A DNA stretch of 64,000 nt from Escherichia phage Ge15: the sequence record PP359696.1; one strand, given 5' to 3'. Below the pieces are notes generated by a model, which saw only the letters and a program-made list of their open reading frames with translations, was not told the origin of the DNA and ran no database searches. The stretch's first letter is position 1, and each line of letters begins with the position of its first letter. Position numbers and translations under genes: made by a program. Below, piece after piece: positions 37,912-49,058 of this stretch.

Positions 37912-37984
37912 TGGGAATTAGCCAAGTTGGTAAGGCACTGGATTTTGATTCCAGGATGCAAAGGTTCGAGTCCTTTATTCCCAG
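37912..37984 (+). tRNA. tRNA-Gln (UUG)
   Basis: Cloverleaf by eye; anticodon loop ttTTGat; T-arm aaaggTTCGAGTccttt. Confidence 0.8.
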
Positions 37985-37985
37985 C

Positions 37986-38072
37986 GCGAGAATGGTCAAA
38001 TTGGTAAAGGCACAGCACTTAAAATGCTGCGGAATTATTTCCTTGTGGGTTCGAGTCCCACTTCTCGCACCA
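37986..38072 (+). tRNA. tRNA-Leu (UAA), long variable arm, CCA encoded
   Basis: Acceptor gcgagaa/ttctcgc; anticodon loop ctTAAaa. Confidence 0.8.
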
Positions 38073-38077
38073 AATTT

Positions 38078-38151
<74 letters not shown>

Positions 38152-38197
38152 ATTTATGACTCGTCGTGAGACGCTCAGTTCTTTATTAGGGACTGAT

Positions 38198-38806
38198 ATG
38201 CATTTTTATCTTTATAAAATAACAAATAAAATTAATAATAAAATTTATATTGGTGTGCATTCTACCGAAAATTTAGATGATGGATATATGGGTTCTGGTA
38301 AATTATTAAAAAGAGCCCAAGATAAATATGGTATAGAAAATTTTTCTAAAGAAATATTAGAGTATTTTGATGATAAAGAATCTATGCTTGAAGCCGAGAA
38401 AAATATTGTCACAGAAGAGTTTTTAAATAGACCAGATGTGTATAATTTAAAACTTGGAGGTGAAGGTGGATGGGACCATATAAATAATTATCCTATGACA
38501 GATCAGCAACGCGAATTAATTTCATTGGGTGTTAAAAAGGCACATTCTAACGGAAAATTAAAAGGATGGTCTTCAAATGGATTAATGAAGAATGGCTTTA
38601 CTGGTAAAACTCATTCTCAAGAAGCTAAACGTAAAATAGCAAAAGCAAACGAAGCAAAAGTTTCTGCGGATGAAAGAAAAAGAAGAATAGAAATTTCTAA
38701 ATTATATGATTTTTCTAAGCGTGGTGAATTATCTAAATATGCTAAGCATATTGGCGTAAGTCATACTCAAGCAAAAAGAATTCTAAATCAAATTAACAAT
38801 ATATAA
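38198..38806 (+). mobile_element. segB: GIY-YIG homing endonuclease (SegB-like) inside the tRNA array
   Basis: N-terminal FYLYKITNKINNKIYIGVHS GIY-YIG motif; basic C-terminal DNA-binding region; T4 segB sits in the tRNA region. Confidence 0.8.
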
Positions 38807-38812
38807 ATATTT

Positions 38813-38902
38813 GGAGGCGTGGCAGAGTGGTTTAATGCACCGGTCTTGAAAACCGGCAGTCGCTCCGGCGACTCATAGGTTCAAATCCTATCGCCTCCGC
38901 CA
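38813..38902 (+). tRNA. tRNA-Ser (UGA), long variable arm, CCA encoded
   Basis: Acceptor ggaggcg/cgcctcc; anticodon loop ctTGAaa. Confidence 0.8.
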
Positions 38903-38908
38903 GTTTTT

Positions 38909-38984
38909 GCTGATTTAGCTCAGTAGGTAGAGCAACTCACTTGTAATGAGAAGGTCGGCGGTTCGATTCCGTCAATCAGCACCA
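38909..38984 (+). tRNA. tRNA-Thr (UGU), CCA encoded
   Basis: Anticodon loop ctTGTaa; T-arm GGTTCGATTCC. Confidence 0.75.
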
Positions 38985-38985
38985 A

Positions 38986-39060
38986 GGCCCTGTAGCTGGA
39001 AGGTTCAAGCAAGCGACTCATAATCGCCAGATGGTGGTTCAATTCCACCCAGGGCCACCA
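38986..39060 (+). tRNA. tRNA-Ile/Met (CAU), CCA encoded
   Basis: Acceptor ggccctg/cagggcc; anticodon loop ctCATaa; T4 has a CAU tRNA read as Ile. Confidence 0.7.
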
Positions 39061-39066
39061 AATTAA

Positions 39067-39153
39067 GGGGAGTTATCCCGTAGAGGTAGCGGTGTGGACT
39101 GTAAATTCATTGTCATTGCGACTCGGGTGGTTCGACTCCACCACTCCCCACCA
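39067..39153 (+). tRNA. tRNA-Tyr (GUA), type II, CCA encoded
   Basis: Acceptor ggggagt/actcccc; anticodon stem with G-U pairs, loop ctGTAaa; long variable arm. Confidence 0.6.
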
Positions 39154-39157
39154 ATTT

Positions 39158-39232
39158 GGATGTGTAGCTCAATGGCAGAGCGATCGCCTGTTAAGCGATT
39201 GGTTATAGGTTCGAATCCTATCACGTCCGCCA
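39158..39232 (+). tRNA. tRNA-Asn (GUU), CCA encoded
   Basis: Anticodon arm atcgc-ctGTTaa-gcgat; T-arm GGTTCGAATCC. Confidence 0.75.
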
Positions 39233-39346
39233 AATTTGTGACAACTGTCACATTAATATCTACTTGACGCGATTATAGGGGTTGAACTGATCACTCTTCT
39301 CTTAATTTCGTGTGAAGACATCTTGATTGTTGGAGTAGGTATTAAT

Positions 39347-39422
39347 GTGGCCGTAGTTCAGTTGGTAGAACTCGAGATTGTGATTCTCGTAGTCATGGGT
39401 TCGACTCCCATCGGTCACCCCA
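39347..39422 (+). tRNA. tRNA-His (GUG), CCA encoded
   Basis: Anticodon arm cgaga-ttGTGat-tctcg; T-arm GGTTCGACTCC. Confidence 0.7.
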
Positions 39423-39426
39423 ATTA

Positions 39427-39502
39427 CGGGGCATAGCTCAGAAGGAAGAGCAAGGACCTTCTAAGTCCTAGGTCGTAGGTTCGATCCCTACTGCCTCGAC
39501 CA
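39427..39502 (+). tRNA. tRNA-Arg (UCU), CCA encoded
   Basis: Anticodon arm aggac-ctTCTaa-gtcct; T-arm GGTTCGATCCC. Confidence 0.8.
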
Positions 39503-45171: not shown

Positions 45172-45588
45172 ATGACTCGTATTAATTTGACTTTAGTATC
45201 TGAACTTGCTGATCAGCATTTAATCGCAGAATACCGTGAATTGCCACGTGTTTTTGGTATAGTTCGTAAACACGTGGCAAATGGTAAGCGGGTTAAAGAT
45301 TTTAAAATATCTTCCGAGTTTATTTTAGGTTCTGGTCATGTTACGTTCTTTTACGATAAGTTAGAATTTTTGCGAAAGCGTCAATCAGACATTATAACGG
45401 AATGCTTAAAACGTGGGTTTAGTATAAAAGATACTGAAGTTCCTGACATCAGTGATATTCCAGCAGAATGGAAAAATGATTATAATCCATGCAAATCAGC
45501 TATTAAATTGAGTCAACAACGACTCGATGAAAAAATTTTAATGAAGCCACACTGGTACAAGTATTACGGCAAAAATATTTACATTTAA
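45172..45588 (+). CDS. denV: Endonuclease V (pyrimidine dimer DNA glycosylase)
   Basis: 138 aa; [17 protein letters not shown]...[10 protein letters not shown] matches T4 DenV but is clearly diverged. Confidence 0.92.
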
Positions 45589-45597
45589 AGGAAACAT

Positions 45598-45915
45598 ATG
45601 AAAACGTATAAAGAATTTATTGCAGAATCTGCCGCAGGACAACGTGTAGAAGGCGGTTATATTTGGATTGAAGAAGTTGAGCCACCTAGTCGTACTTCTA
45701 CTGGTAAATGGAAAATTACTGTCGATGGTCCTGGCGGAAAACGCAGAACTTTAAAAGAAATTAATGGATATTATAGTGAAGCTCTTTCAGACGCGGGCAC
45801 TTATATGATGCAAATTATGATTAAAAATCCAGAAAATCGTTTTGCAGCTAGAGTTTTCCGCCGCATTGGAAATAAACTTTACGATGCATATTCTAAAAAT
45901 TTTCCTAAAGCATAA
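45598..45915 (+). CDS. Internal protein with CTS (IPII-like)
   Basis: MKTYKEFIAES CTS; 105 aa basic protein. Confidence 0.7.
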   Translation: MKTYKEFIAESAAGQRVEGGYIWIEEVEPPSRTSTGKWKITVDGPGGKRRTLKEINGYYSEALSDAGTYMMQIMIKNPENRFAARVFRRIGNKLYDAYSKNFPKA

Positions 45916-45931
45916 AAATTAAAGGAAACAT

Positions 45932-46405
45932 ATGAAAACATATCAAGAATTTATTACTGAAGCAGCTATTAATTCTCAAATTATTGCTGAATCTTTTACT
46001 GATCTTTTGAAATTTAAAAAAGGTCAAAAAATCACTGCTGTATTGGATGATGGTACAGAAGTTGAGATGGATGTACAGGGATATAATTATGCAGTAGATG
46101 GAAAACTGTATAATAAATCTCATGCTAAATTTGATTCATTTGACGACTTTGTTAATACAGTTGAAGATGAAAAAACTCGTAGATCCATTGCAACTGGTGA
46201 TGCTAAGGTTCTTATGGCACACGGCCATGAACGCATTCGCGCTAAGCAGAATAAAATGGGCGAAGATAATTTCGCATTAGTTGGTTATCAATCTGGTAAA
46301 CAAACTTATGGTTATCAGCGTACTGCTACCATGTATAACAAAAATGGTAAAATCGCTTTCGTGAATAGTAAAGGTTCTGTTCAGTACGTTAAATCGTTCA
46401 AATAA
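45932..46405 (+). CDS. Internal protein with CTS (IPIII-like)
   Basis: MKTYQEFITEAA CTS; 157 aa. Confidence 0.7.
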   Translation: MKTYQEFITEAAINSQIIAESFTDLLKFKKGQKITAVLDDGTEVEMDVQGYNYAVDGKLYNKSHAKFDSFDDFVNTVEDEKTRRSIATGDAKVLMAHGHERIRAKQNKMGEDNFALVGYQSGKQTYGYQRTATMYNKNGKIAFVNSKGSVQYVKSFK

Positions 46406-46540
46406 TATGGGAACAGCCTGGACCTCATTTGAGGTATTCCCGCCAACCTGTGATAAGGTCGAGCCAAAGCGCGGTAATGGGTAATGCAGGAATGGACAAC
46501 TCATGTGCCATGGAATGGCCCAAAAATTAAGAGAGAAAAT

Positions 46541-47083
46541 ATGAAAACATTTTTAACTGGCCCGTATCTATCCCTGATGAATGCTTTTACACACCATTCT
46601 GATGCTAGAGTAGAAGAAATTTGTAAAAACGAATATATCCCGCCATTTGAAGAATTACTTAAACAGTACTGTACACTTCGTATAGATGGTGGACGTCAAT
46701 CCGGTAAATCACTTGCTGTGACTAACTTTGCTGCTAATTGGCTGTATGATGGCGGAACAGTTATTGTTCTATCTAATACTTCAGCTTACGCTAAAATTTC
46801 TGCAAATAACATTAAAAAGGAATTTTCGCGTTATTCTAATGATGATATACGTTTTCGTTTATTTACTGATTCTGTGCGCAGTTTTATTGGTAATAGAGGT
46901 AGCAAGTTCAGAGGTTTATCGCTTTCACGAATTTTGTATATAATTGATGAGCCTGTTAAATCTCCTGATATGGATAAAATTTACGATATTCATATTGAAA
47001 CTGTGCAACACTGTTGTCGAAGCTATAATGCTGAAACAGGTGAAACAGTTCGTCCTCAATTTTTTGTGATTGGAATGCAATGA
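46541..47083 (+). CDS. Small P-loop NTPase
   Basis: Start trimmed to MKTFLTGPY; Walker A GGRQSGKS and Walker B-like ILYIIDEP. Confidence 0.55.
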   Translation: MKTFLTGPYLSLMNAFTHHSDARVEEICKNEYIPPFEELLKQYCTLRIDGGRQSGKSLAVTNFAANWLYDGGTVIVLSNTSAYAKISANNIKKEFSRYSNDDIRFRLFTDSVRSFIGNRGSKFRGLSLSRILYIIDEPVKSPDMDKIYDIHIETVQHCCRSYNAETGETVRPQFFVIGMQ

Positions 47084-47409
47084 TGACAGACACACAGCTT
47101 TTCGAATATCTTTATTTTTCGCCAAAAACTATTAAAAATAAATTGGTGAATCATTTTGAAATTTTGGCAAATAACAACGTCTTGAGCGAATTTTATCCTA
47201 AGCAATACAAATTACAAAAAGGCGTATTCAAAGGATGCAGAGTTTTGTGTACTGCTCCTAACGCGCAGTTAATGAATAAAATTCCATATTTTACCATGGA
47301 ATTTATTGATGGACCTTTTAAAGGACTAATCACCCAAAGTTTAATGGCATATGATTCTGAGCCATTTTTAATTAAAGAACAATCTTGGATAAATTTATTT
47401 TCTAATTGA
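47080..47409 (+). CDS. Hypothetical protein translationally coupled to the P-loop NTPase
   Basis: ATGA start/stop overlap. Confidence 0.5.
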
Positions 47410-47416
47410 GGTTTAT

Positions 47417-47779
47417 ATGAAAGCATATCAAATTCTTGAAGGCACACATAAAGGTACTATTTATTTTGAAGATGGTATTCAAGCACGAATTATTGTCTCT
47501 AAAACCTTTAAAGAGGACTCTTTTGTAGACCCAGAAATTTTCTATGGTTTGCATGCCCGTGAAATTGAAATTGAGCAACAGCCTACAGTTAAAATTGAAG
47601 GTGGTCAACACCTGAACGTTAACGTTCTGCGTCGCGAAACTTTGGAAGATGCAGTTAAGCATCCGGAAAAATATCCGCAGCTGACCATCCGTGTATCCGG
47701 TTATGCAGTTCGCTTTAACTCTCTGACTCCGGAACAGCAGCGCGACGTTATTGCTCGTACCTTTACTGAGAGTTTGTAA
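47417..47779 (+). CDS. Autonomous glycyl-radical cofactor (GrcA/YfiD-like)
   Basis: C-terminal ~60 aa ([60 protein letters not shown]) matches E. coli GrcA glycyl-radical domain as I recall it; N-terminus is phage-specific. Confidence 0.9.
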
Positions 47780-48000: not shown

Positions 48001-48259
48001 AGACATTAAAGGTTATAAGCCGCATACTGAAGAGAAAATCGGTAAAGTGAATGCTATTAAAGACGCTGAAGTTCGTTTAGGACTTATCTTTGACGCTTTA
48101 TACGATGAATTCTGGGAAGCACTAGATAATTGTGAAGATGATGAACTCGCGAAGAATTATGCTGAAAGCCTCGATCAGTTAACTATTGCTAAAACGAAAC
48201 TCAAAGAAGCCAGTATGTGGGCTTGTCGTGCAGTGTTCCAACCAGAGGAAAAATACTAA
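47993..48259 (+). CDS. Hypothetical small protein
   Basis: Start trimmed to MIEDIKGY. Confidence 0.45.
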
Positions 48260-48537
48260 TGGCTCAATTAAGTGCAGGGTTTGGTTATGAGTATTATACT
48301 GCACCTCGTCGTGTATCTGCCGCTCCTAAGAAAATTCAAAGTCTTGATGACTTCCAGGAAGTAGTCCGTAAAGCTTTTCAGGACTATGCACGTTATCTTA
48401 AAGAAGATTCACAGGACTGTCTCGAAGAAGATGAAATTGCTTACTATGAGCAGCGTCTTGAACAGCTTAAAAACTTACATGAGGTTCGTGCAGAAGTTTC
48501 AAAGTCTATGAATAAATTGATTAGATTTAAAGAATAA
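48259..48537 (+). CDS. Hypothetical small protein
   Basis: Start trimmed to MAQLSAGF. Confidence 0.45.
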
Positions 48538-48596: not shown

Positions 48597-49058
48597 ATGA
48601 CTATCAACACAGAAGTTTTTATCCGTCGAAATAAGCTCCGTCGTCACTTTGAGTCGGAGTTTCGTCAAATTAACAATGAGATTCGTGAGGCATCAAAAGC
48701 AGCAGGGGTCTCATCGTTTCATCTAAAATATTCTCAGCATCTTCTTGATCGTGCAATTCAACGGGAGATTGATGAGACATATGTTTTTGAATTATTCCAT
48801 AAAATAAAAGATCATGTTTTAGAAGTTAATGAATTCCTGAGTATGCCTCCGCGTCCTGACATTGACGAGGATTTTATTGATGGGGTTGAATATCGTCCTG
48901 GACGTTTAGAAATCACAGATGGAAATCTTTGGCTTGGATTTACAGTTTGTAAGCCTAATGAGAAGTTCAAAAACCCGTCACTTCAATGCAGGATGGCAAT
49001 TATCAACAGTCGTCGTTTACCAGGAAAGGCTTCTAAAGCAGTAATTAAAACTCAATGA
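48597..49058 (+). CDS. regB: Endoribonuclease RegB
   Basis: 153 aa; sequence recognised as T4 RegB. Confidence 0.9.
   Translation: MTINTEVFIRRNKLRRHFESEFRQINNEIREASKAAGVSSFHLKYSQHLLDRAIQREIDETYVFELFHKIKDHVLEVNEFLSMPPRPDIDEDFIDGVEYRPGRLEITDGNLWLGFTVCKPNEKFKNPSLQCRMAIINSRRLPGKASKAVIKTQ

Follow-up and report, generated by a model that had tools for sequence, protein, structure and literature searches.

The closest described counterparts of the locus reported here, a GC-rich stretch followed by two overlapping open reading frames (ORFs) in 64,000 nucleotides (nt) of Escherichia phage Ge15 (PP359696.1; this whole stretch is the window, and positions refer to it unless a record or locus is named), are the phage T4 genes vs.8 and vs.7. 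Both are known, annotated T4 genes that are uncharacterised, and the T4 vs genes are classed as early or delayed-early. An independent 2026 preprint describes vs.8 as ATPase-like, uncharacterised and homologous to the T4 terminase's ATPase domain, retrieves T4-like terminases by PSI-BLAST from vs.8, and finds that its co-expression with EcAvs2, a terminase sensor, causes toxicity, the AlphaFold3 (AF3) interface predicted template modelling score (ipTM) being 0.84 (10.64898/2026.04.30.721860). That work examined vs.8 alone and left its own role open; it also describes Ksap1 and Ksap2, small lineage-restricted phage proteins with a terminase-ATPase-like sheet that are non-terminase activators of Avs2 (10.64898/2026.04.30.721860). 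The partner vs.7 has been left out of consideration in recent vs.8 work. In T4, the block from vs.3 to denV is lost in a viable genome-reduced phage, and because this block is deletable the vs.8/vs.7 pair is accessory (PMC9825161).

The initial annotation of the window had proposed a small P-loop nucleoside triphosphatase (NTPase) coupled to a 109-amino-acid (aa) partner. This idea is supported, having survived examination of the two points on which it could have fallen, namely the fold in which the Walker motifs lie and the co-occurrence of the two genes in related phages. Beyond that proposal, we find that the two ORFs are known T4 genes, that vs.8 is terminase-ATPase-like and that the greater novelty lies in the GC-rich stretch, which is a conserved structured RNA. 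Our overall reading, which we hold to be probable, is that the locus consists of a structured RNA (46409-46519) followed by vs.8 and vs.7, and that the two proteins form a vs.8:vs.7 complex that binds ATP and plays an accessory part where phage and host meet.

The vs.8/vs.7 gene pair

The first ORF is a member of the T4 vs.8 orthologue group, matching phrog_1488 over residues 3-180 (E 9.3e-79), sharing the neighbours of T4 vs.8 and being 88.9% identical to it over residues 41-219 of the T4 annotation (T4p119, NP_049732). The second, directly downstream of vs.8, belongs to orthologue group phrog_2049 / PF26834 (phrog_2049 E 7.3e-54) and is 97% identical to T4 vs.7 (T4p118, NP_049731). An alternative in-frame ATG for vs.8 at 46484 was rejected, nearly all homologues beginning with M-(K/R)-T-F-L-T, which corresponds to 46541. 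The Walker A motif GGRQSGKS and Walker B motif ILYIIDEP that had been read from the 180-aa ORF at 46541-47083 are both present, and across 20 homologues with identities down to 41% the residues G50, G51, R52, Q53, S54, G55 and K56 of the former are invariant or nearly so, as is the L132 Y133 I134 I135 (D/E)136 E137 P138 of the latter, in which L132, I135, E137 and P138 never change. This degree of conservation reflects selection rather than chance.

By sequence, the nearest relatives of vs.8 are large-terminase ATPase domains. The sole family-specific sequence signal is to terminase (PHROG phrog_2, E 1.2e-5), covering residues 43-149 from Walker A to Walker B. An R-Q pair is typical of terminase Walker A motifs, gp17 having SRQLGKT, and vs.8 carries both a terminase-type Walker A (R-Q-x-G-K-S/T) and a Walker B with an adjacent catalytic glutamate. 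When vs.8 was aligned by hhalign to the gp17 of this phage (12284-14113, minus strand), GGRQSGKS fell on LSRQLGKT at gp17 residues 160-167, in a match that spans gp17 160-205. An AlphaFold2 model of vs.8 (predicted local distance difference test score, pLDDT, 80; predicted template modelling score, pTM, 0.80) has helices at the N-terminus and, after them, an alpha/beta core of five strands, forming a single RecA-like P-loop domain that holds the Walker motifs as initially proposed, and combines the features of an additional strand catalytic glutamate (ASCE) P-loop NTPase: a Walker A strand-loop-helix, a Walker B with glutamate and a parallel beta-sheet core. The rest of a terminase, meaning the C-terminal RNase H-like nuclease and ATPase subdomain II, is absent, as vs.8 ends at residue 180 after the fifth core strand. 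Neither vs.8 nor vs.7 matched Pfam, NCBIfam or PADLOC above threshold, the vs.8 profile gave no significant match among PDB sequences, and Foldseek of vs.8 against the PDB returned only generic helicase matches with TM scores of about 0.5.

Homologues of vs.8 are few (27 by word-indexed search) and all stand-alone proteins of about 160-185 aa, and three longer remote ones (P0033, P0054, P0063) revealed no fused domains. A profile search of 1.84 billion representative proteins found 51 clusters, and tblastn matched 1010 phage records, all from phages with enterobacterial hosts and with genomes of about 150-186 kb, except that one match lies in a 100-kb record; none of these records was an rV5-like, Pseudomonas or Vibrio phage. 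The pair is confined to T4-like phages of enterobacteria.

An alignment-seeded search with vs.7 recovered 43 homologues, of which almost all carry the PF26834 tag; Pfam and NCBIfam gave no family match, the Pfam release used being one without the PF26834 model. Its most conserved features are two G-P-F-K-G-like motifs, which we take to be reminiscent of the KOW signature. Structure prediction gives two N-terminal helices and a small beta-barrel in the C-terminal half whose best matches are SH3 and KOW domains, and which also resembles the SH3 inserts of the superfamily 1B (SF1B) helicases RecD, Dda and Pif1.

In all the T4-like lineages examined the two genes sit side by side: vs.7 lies directly 3' of vs.8 in 16 of 16 loci with enough sequence. 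This count includes two genomes in which the partner is unannotated, Yersinia phage phiR1-RT (L032, 3132-3380) and Cronobacter phage Pet-CM3-4 (L033, 3172-3585), where the vs.7 ORF begins at the conserved overlapping junction. In the window the TGA stop of vs.8 (47081-47083) overlaps the ATG of the 109-aa ORF (47080-47082), the ATGA arrangement first noticed in the initial annotation. The junction GGAAUGCAAUGAUG, in which the start encloses the stop, hardly changes, including in loci where vs.8 identity has dropped to 37-44%; GGAATGCAATGATG is kept in eight divergent loci, with variants GGATTACAATGATG (L008) and GGAATGCAATAATG (L032), and the vs.8 C-terminus always reads ...V-I-G-M-Q. Conservation of the junction despite divergence of vs.8 is strong evidence of selection for translational coupling, and from this we infer a complex of fixed ratio.

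Together, these data suggest a model in which vs.8 would bind and hydrolyse ATP, as predicted, vs.7 would be made in a fixed ratio with it via translational coupling and join it in a complex, and the complex, resembling a terminase ATPase, would act early at the interface between phage and host. As its mechanism we tentatively prefer, on weak support, counter-defence or a decoy function in which vs.7 would modulate or mask vs.8, because vs.8 by itself shows toxicity with EcAvs2, which senses terminases (10.64898/2026.04.30.721860). Several points count against this model as a whole. EcAvs2 toxicity means that vs.8 triggers the sensor, which fits a decoy poorly unless vs.7 alters the outcome; the interaction of the two proteins is one that we infer from gene arrangement only; Pfam Terminase_6N reaches 13.1 bits in vs.8 against a gathering score of 22 and so stays below threshold; and by fold, superfamily 2 (SF2) helicase domains score as high as terminases.

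An alternative that we regard as unlikely is a nucleic-acid-handling module, in which vs.8 would be a minimal helicase- or translocase-like NTPase and vs.7 a KOW/SH3-type subunit binding nucleic acid or a partner; such a module might act on RNA, possibly the upstream structured RNA or tRNA-related substrates. The likeness of vs.7 to KOW/SH3 domains and to SF1B SH3 inserts speaks for it, as does the RNA element that always lies upstream of vs.8 in T4-like phages. However, no helicase family is significant for vs.8 by sequence, the protein has one RecA-like domain only, when to our knowledge helicases need two such domains or an oligomeric ring, and the RNA occurs in many phages without vs.8, so that there is no obligate link between the two. 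Far less probable still is that the locus is an evolutionary remnant, a duplicated terminase fragment drifting with a neighbouring ORF and with its Walker motifs merely inherited. The dispensability of the vs.3-denV block in T4 (PMC9825161), the vs.8 match in phage T2, which is split in three, and the truncated fragments P0013, P0018 and P0027 would fit such decay, but in homologues from many genera, with identities as low as about 40%, there is no change in the catalytic residues, in several arginines or in the C-terminal FFVIGMQ, vs.8 length is steady at 173-181 aa, the overlapping junction is kept at the nucleotide level, and vs.8 is found in about 1000 phage genomes. Under the preferred reading of a look-alike complex, the new interest of these genes lies in a look-alike visible to an immune sensor and in its obligate-looking partner. 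If vs.8 is always made together with vs.7, tests of vs.8 function or of Avs2 recognition during infection should use the pair.

Public records name the two genes inconsistently. In slur02/04/11/13, JK23, teqhal and teqsoen, vs.8 and vs.7 bear the names 'endoribonuclease' or 'RegB'; elsewhere vs.8 is called 'terminase large subunit', and in ValerieMcCarty03 vs.8 is 'IpIII' and vs.7 'DNA ligase'. A RegB identity of vs.8 was rejected, hhalign of the vs.8 profile against the RegB of the window giving 0.05% probability and the true regB lying at 48597-49058, and the RegB-type name on vs.8 is an annotation error without sequence support. The T2 match (AP018813.1, 61756-62288; H156) falls in three pieces, representing frameshifts or sequencing errors, and may be a natural loss of vs.8.

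The GC-rich stretch upstream of vs.8

The 135 nt immediately upstream of vs.8 (46406-46540) had been singled out initially as unusually GC-rich, and they have 47.4% GC against a mean of 35.9% (standard deviation 5.1%) for 135-nt windows, only 2.4% of which are as GC-rich across the 64 kb. The stretch is non-coding, and covariation in four helices shows it to be, as modelled, a pseudoknotted RNA, whose parts are listed in Table 1. We consider it a genuine new structured RNA family.

Table 1. Positions of the predicted RNA, its helices and the two coding sequences in the window
Feature	Position	Strand	Remarks
Conserved pseudoknotted RNA element	46409-46519	+	About 110 nt; in the T4 annotation, 5' end of the vs.8 ORF
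P1 hairpin	46409-46441	+	GGGAA 46409-13 : UUCCC 46437-41; encloses the P0 5' strand and the inner hairpin
P0 5' strand, CCUG	46417-20	+	Pairs with CAGG 46487-46490
Inner hairpin within P1	CCUCA 46423-27 : UGAGG 46430-34	+	CCUCAU/AUGAGG to CCUUAU/AUAAGG, compensatory changes in L020
Three-way-junction core	46442-46482	+	P2, P3, P4
P2	GCC 46442-44 : GGU 46480-82	+	Covarying
P3	ACCU 46446-49 : AGGU 46456-59	+	Loop GUGAUA (family GURANA); invariant
P4	C46460:G46474, G46463-C46464 : G46471-C46472	+	C(G)AG...CGG, variable top
P0 3' strand, CAGG	46487-46490	+	Long-range helix, from the P1 loop to about 10 nt past the core
3' hairpin, GCCA[UGGAA]UGGC	46507-46519	+	T4-like phages only; about 20 nt before the vs.8 start, before the ribosome-binding region
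ORF 1, vs.8 orthologue	46541-47083	+	180 aa; stand-alone terminase-type ASCE P-loop NTPase
Walker A, GGRQSGKS	residues 50-57, 46688-46711	+	Invariant in 20 homologues
Walker B and catalytic glutamate, ILYIIDEP	residues 131-138, 46931-46954	+	On predicted strand 131-135
ATGA stop/start overlap, vs.8/vs.7	47080-47083	+	Translational coupling site; same overlap in T4
ORF 2, vs.7 orthologue	47080-47409	+	109 aa; two N-terminal helices and SH3/KOW-like barrel (predicted); two GPFKG-type motifs

A P1 helix ending 4-6 nt upstream of the core was found in 17 of 17 representatives, its sequences being unrelated, and pair 12:59 of alignment A8 is CG in five sequences and GC in four. For P2, 22 hand-collected cores showed CG, UA and GC at one position, with slide controls that collapse. 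In 57 distinct cores one P2 pair is CG in 35, GC in 11, AU in 7 and GU in 2, the next pair is CG in 35, GC in 7, AU in 5 and UA in 4, and the inner P4 pair is CG in 38, UA in 11 and GC in 2. Overall, 90% of cells in this alignment are paired, compared with 20-49% when the 3' partner is slid; the alignment was fitted to a covariance model and hence leans towards the structure. The covariation alignments include related sequences, and counts are of cells, not independent events. Against the structure stands P3, which is invariant across cores and so gains no covariation support, its invariance leaving it uninformative on pairing. The 3' hairpin, kept in all T4-like copies, barely varies and is neutral with respect to covariation.

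The long-range helix P0 was found by RNAalifold on nine T4-like elements, in which both partners differ between sequences at four of the five P0 pairs, a single pair taking the forms CG, GC, AU and UA. Because P0 crosses P1, the predicted fold is pseudoknotted. In other lineages the same place holds CUCCGG:CCGGAG, GGGUA:UACCC versus GGGAG:CUCCC, ACCAA:UUGGU and GCCAG:CUGGU, and a crude pooled family-wide test gave 5.35 versus 4.83 +/- 0.11 for shuffles. Per-sequence shuffle tests of P0 were mostly non-significant, the helices being of 3-4 base pairs, so that only the aligned covariation and the pooled test support it. Single-sequence minimum-free-energy folding did no better than shuffles (z -0.7, -0.4) and gave inconsistent folds; the predicted structure rests on covariation, not on energy.

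Three other pairings were tried and rejected: a long ACC/GUG...CGC/GGU hairpin fitted the second L027 copy poorly; the Pseudomonas-type CUAACC:GGUUAG pairing is broken in L005, where P2 covaries instead; and a GUAA:UUAC pairing never varies and is absent from other lineages. Likenesses to the twister L4 loop, the J4/2 sequence of hepatitis delta virus (HDV) ribozymes, the 16S 530 loop, the tRNA-Tyr/His anticodon loop that is the substrate of tRNA-guanine transglycosylase (TGT) and CRISPR repeats are unsupported, and we do not claim them. The B and C types of the T4-like element contain an almost invariant inner hairpin, CCUCUCCUCAUGAACGUCGUGUCCUCUGAGUGA (A8 columns 22-56; in L009, for example, about 1458-1492), which includes a CCUCC run resembling an anti-Shine-Dalgarno sequence, together with a mini-ORF of 7 codons, AUG AAC GUC GUG UCC UCU GAG UGA; T4 and the window have the plain CCUCA...UGAGG hairpin in its place.

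Searches for known features gave nothing at the element. Rfam 15 has no match overlapping 46409-46519 at E<=10, and in 11 related loci only tRNAs reach Rfam gathering scores. Neither ARAGORN, which places its 10 tRNAs all in 37912-39502, nor the Rfam tRNA model detects a tRNA or transfer-messenger RNA (tmRNA) there. In the literature searched we found no paper with the RNA core sequence, and vs.7 is likewise undiscussed.

Could the stretch act as DNA instead, either by shuffling internal-protein genes as a boundary for recombination or for cassettes, or by serving as a promoter or terminator? Two copies of the element bracket an inserted internal-protein gene in a Klebsiella phage (L030, 2026-2068 and 2548-2590) and in Salmonella phage STP4-a (L009, 1499-1541 and 2410-2443), T4 and the window do not have the same genes in the same order around the element, a difference in the placing of denV and the internal-protein (ip) genes with which the bracketing fits, and one paper uses a 'promoter of vs.8'. 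We nevertheless judge this reading improbable, given the compensatory base changes in four helices and G-U pairs that work on the + strand only. No promoter or terminator signal rises above chance: a sigma-70 scan found nine promoter-like sites, 10.0 +/- 3.4 being expected, with none in 46406-46540, and the GC-rich stretch has no intrinsic terminator on the + strand. An RNA function does not conflict with duplication by recombination, which may be a secondary consequence of it; from the bracketing, the element seems to act also as a boundary at which ip cassettes recombine.

The reading of the stretch as an N-terminal coding extension of vs.8, as in RefSeq T4 (219 aa) and as in some database proteins of 194-196 aa with extensions, draws on a frame that is open in T4 but is already refuted by these data, because the frame is closed by in-frame stops in the window, the 46409-46519 region aligns to the first 120 nt of annotated T4 vs.8 with indels of 6, 1 and 7 nt, the conserved nucleotides are translated in three frames by the extended annotations of different phages (FMCHGMAQ, TTHVPWNGP, NSCAMEWP), the sequence is kept in intergenic tRNA regions of phages without vs.8, and its base pairs covary. 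The extension in the RefSeq T4 coding sequence corresponds to T4 64,793-64,912 (L001, NC_000866, 6794-6913, minus strand) and to 46409-46540 in the window, and RefSeq very probably places the start of T4 vs.8 too far upstream by 40 codons, the conserved start being M41 (MRTFLTG). Constructs made from the annotated T4 vs.8 ORF would thus carry a structured RNA and a spurious peptide. A BLAST search with 146 nt matched 1035 phage records, many with no annotation beneath the match. A covarying pseudoknotted RNA has apparently been hidden inside an ORF annotation of T4, whose genome is among the best studied.

Distribution and context of the RNA

The RNA ranges more widely than vs.8, and for that reason we regard it as independent of vs.8. 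Its 44-nt core is 86-95% identical in unrelated phages, the rV5-like FV3 and Pseudomonas phage PsgM04F, the latter having it flanked by tRNA-Thr and tRNA-Gly; Vibrio phage F97 has a more divergent copy with the nearest tRNA about 1.2 kb away, and the RNA also occurs in metagenomic or uncultured and in jumbo phages. No match to the core was found in bacterial and archaeal genomes (185,579 species). Covariance model R1 finds exactly one copy in the window (46441-46483, 65 bits), with none in the tRNA cluster 37912-39502, whereas three other phages have two copies each. When IMG/VR was scanned with a loose pattern, 75 loci were recovered, 74 of which match the covariance model.

In these other lineages the element usually sits next to tRNA genes of the same strand, within or alongside tRNA operons. 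Among the 32 IMG/VR loci that were scanned for tRNAs and score at least 37 bits, 18 have a same-strand tRNA gene within 600 nt, the nearest at 40-47 nt, and the same pattern is seen in FV3, PsgM04F and L004. In T4-like phages the element lies about 7 kb downstream of the tRNA cluster and always before vs.8 or an internal-protein gene. The gene downstream of the element in FV3 encodes an unrelated protein, so no downstream gene is common to all lineages.

A further interpretation, again with the balance of probability behind it, is that the stretch represents, in the T4 family, a widespread and hitherto undescribed class of phage RNAs, pseudoknotted and about 85-115 nt long, with the near-invariant three-way-junction core ACCUGURANAAGGUC...CGGUAA, mostly transcribed with tRNA operons and probably trans-acting or catalytic in tRNA/translation biology or counter-defence, rather than a mere vs.8 leader. 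It is the proposed transcription with tRNA operons in most lineages that would make a trans-acting or catalytic role probable. The RNA would be an independent functional module, a stable processed RNA or a leader, kept before vs.8 in T4-like phages; it could be a stable RNA released by processing of tRNA-type transcripts, or could act as a ribozyme or bind a ligand or protein, and in T4-like phages might additionally serve as a leader of vs.8. That rV5-like, Pseudomonas, Vibrio, jumbo and uncultured phages all have it, as a rule in tRNA operons, argues for a conserved function, one that has hitherto not been sought.

Some loci contain tandem RNA cores about 45-115 nt apart (L027 365-407/479-519; L071 9023-9065/9137-9177; L068 832-874/918-959; L062 5095-5135/5206-5248), the second copy having a different P4 top, for example GCC[CGC]GGC. 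At Pseudomonas-phage-type loci (L003 2370-2870; L004 1900-2300; L005 300-700; L014, L021, L028, L040, L073) the element stands between repeated long hairpins, CACAACAGGUAAGAGCAYU...AGUGCUCUUAUCGUUGUG, some of which have inside them a conserved loop, GCAGGUUUACAUGGUGGACUUGAUUGCCACGGAGUACGAAGCAAAGUGC, roughly 50 nt long; they resemble additional structured RNAs of the tRNA region that lack annotation.

Neighbourhood and comparison with known systems

The window derives from a T4-like phage: a 1.2-kb query matched 809 phage records, nearly all Tequatrovirus-like, and the genes around the locus include near-identical T4 lysozyme, denV, nudE, RegB, the GrcA-like protein and internal-protein genes. 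Its + strand corresponds to the T4 minus strand. As stated initially, the locus lies between internal-protein genes and a GrcA-like gene; upstream of the RNA element is an ipIII-like internal-protein gene (DUF7412, 157 aa; 45932-46405), and downstream of vs.7 the GrcA-like gene (Gly_radical; 47417-47779). Over 45172-46405 the window has the order e, denV, ipII-like, ipIII-like (DUF7412), then vs.8; the T4 order (L001 6940-8416) is e, ipIII, ipII, denV, then vs.8. T4 continues with vs.8 (T4p119), vs.7 (T4p118), vs.6 (GrcA-like), vs.5, vs.4, vs.3 and regB. The window tRNA cluster (37912-39502) comprises 10 genes (Gln, Leu, Gly, Ser, Thr, Met, Tyr, Asn, His, Arg; ARAGORN), a set partly different from that of T4, which has eight. 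At 48217-48537 lies an orthologue of T4 vs.3, an ORF of the 'long' (>80 aa) type. T4 vs.3 is TadIV-1, an anti-Thoeris sponge for the type IV Thoeris signal of which the 'long' (>80 aa) type is active, so this gene cluster holds counter-defence genes (PMC13243611).

Among described RNAs, HDV-like ribozymes, including the 'theta' type, share with the element the nested pseudoknot order P1a, P0a, hairpin, P1b, peripheral domain, P0b. HDV-like and theta ribozymes are found beside phage tRNA genes, a setting common to both. Unlike them, the element has no conserved cytosine in its P2-P0 linker, the counterpart of J4/2 (AAUG here, UUACAU or CU elsewhere), carries conserved nucleotides in the domain that matches the dispensable P4, and closes P1 with G-C rather than G-U. 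Assignment to the HDV-like ribozyme class was therefore rejected, the catalytic cytosine being missing and no HDV-type Rfam model matching at E<=10.

Of the proteins, vs.7 is likened to SH3/KOW domains (Spt5/NusG KOW, Kin17 SH3-like tandem) in its predicted C-terminal barrel. The T4 vs.8/vs.7 genes are orthologues of those in the window, with the same order, 4-nt overlap and neighbours (vs.6/GrcA-like, regB); the T4 vs.8 record starts 40 codons earlier, inside the RNA element, in a frame that is closed in the window, and the upstream neighbour is denV in T4 and the ipIII-like gene in the window. The gp17 terminase ATPase (Terminase_6N; PDB 2o0h) has 610 aa compared with 180 in vs.8, which is without the nuclease and subdomain II and, unlike gp17, is dispensable and paired with vs.7 rather than with the small terminase. 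To Ksap1 and Ksap2, compared by sequence only, vs.8 bears no relationship that we could find; unlike them, it has intact Walker motifs and a coupled partner.

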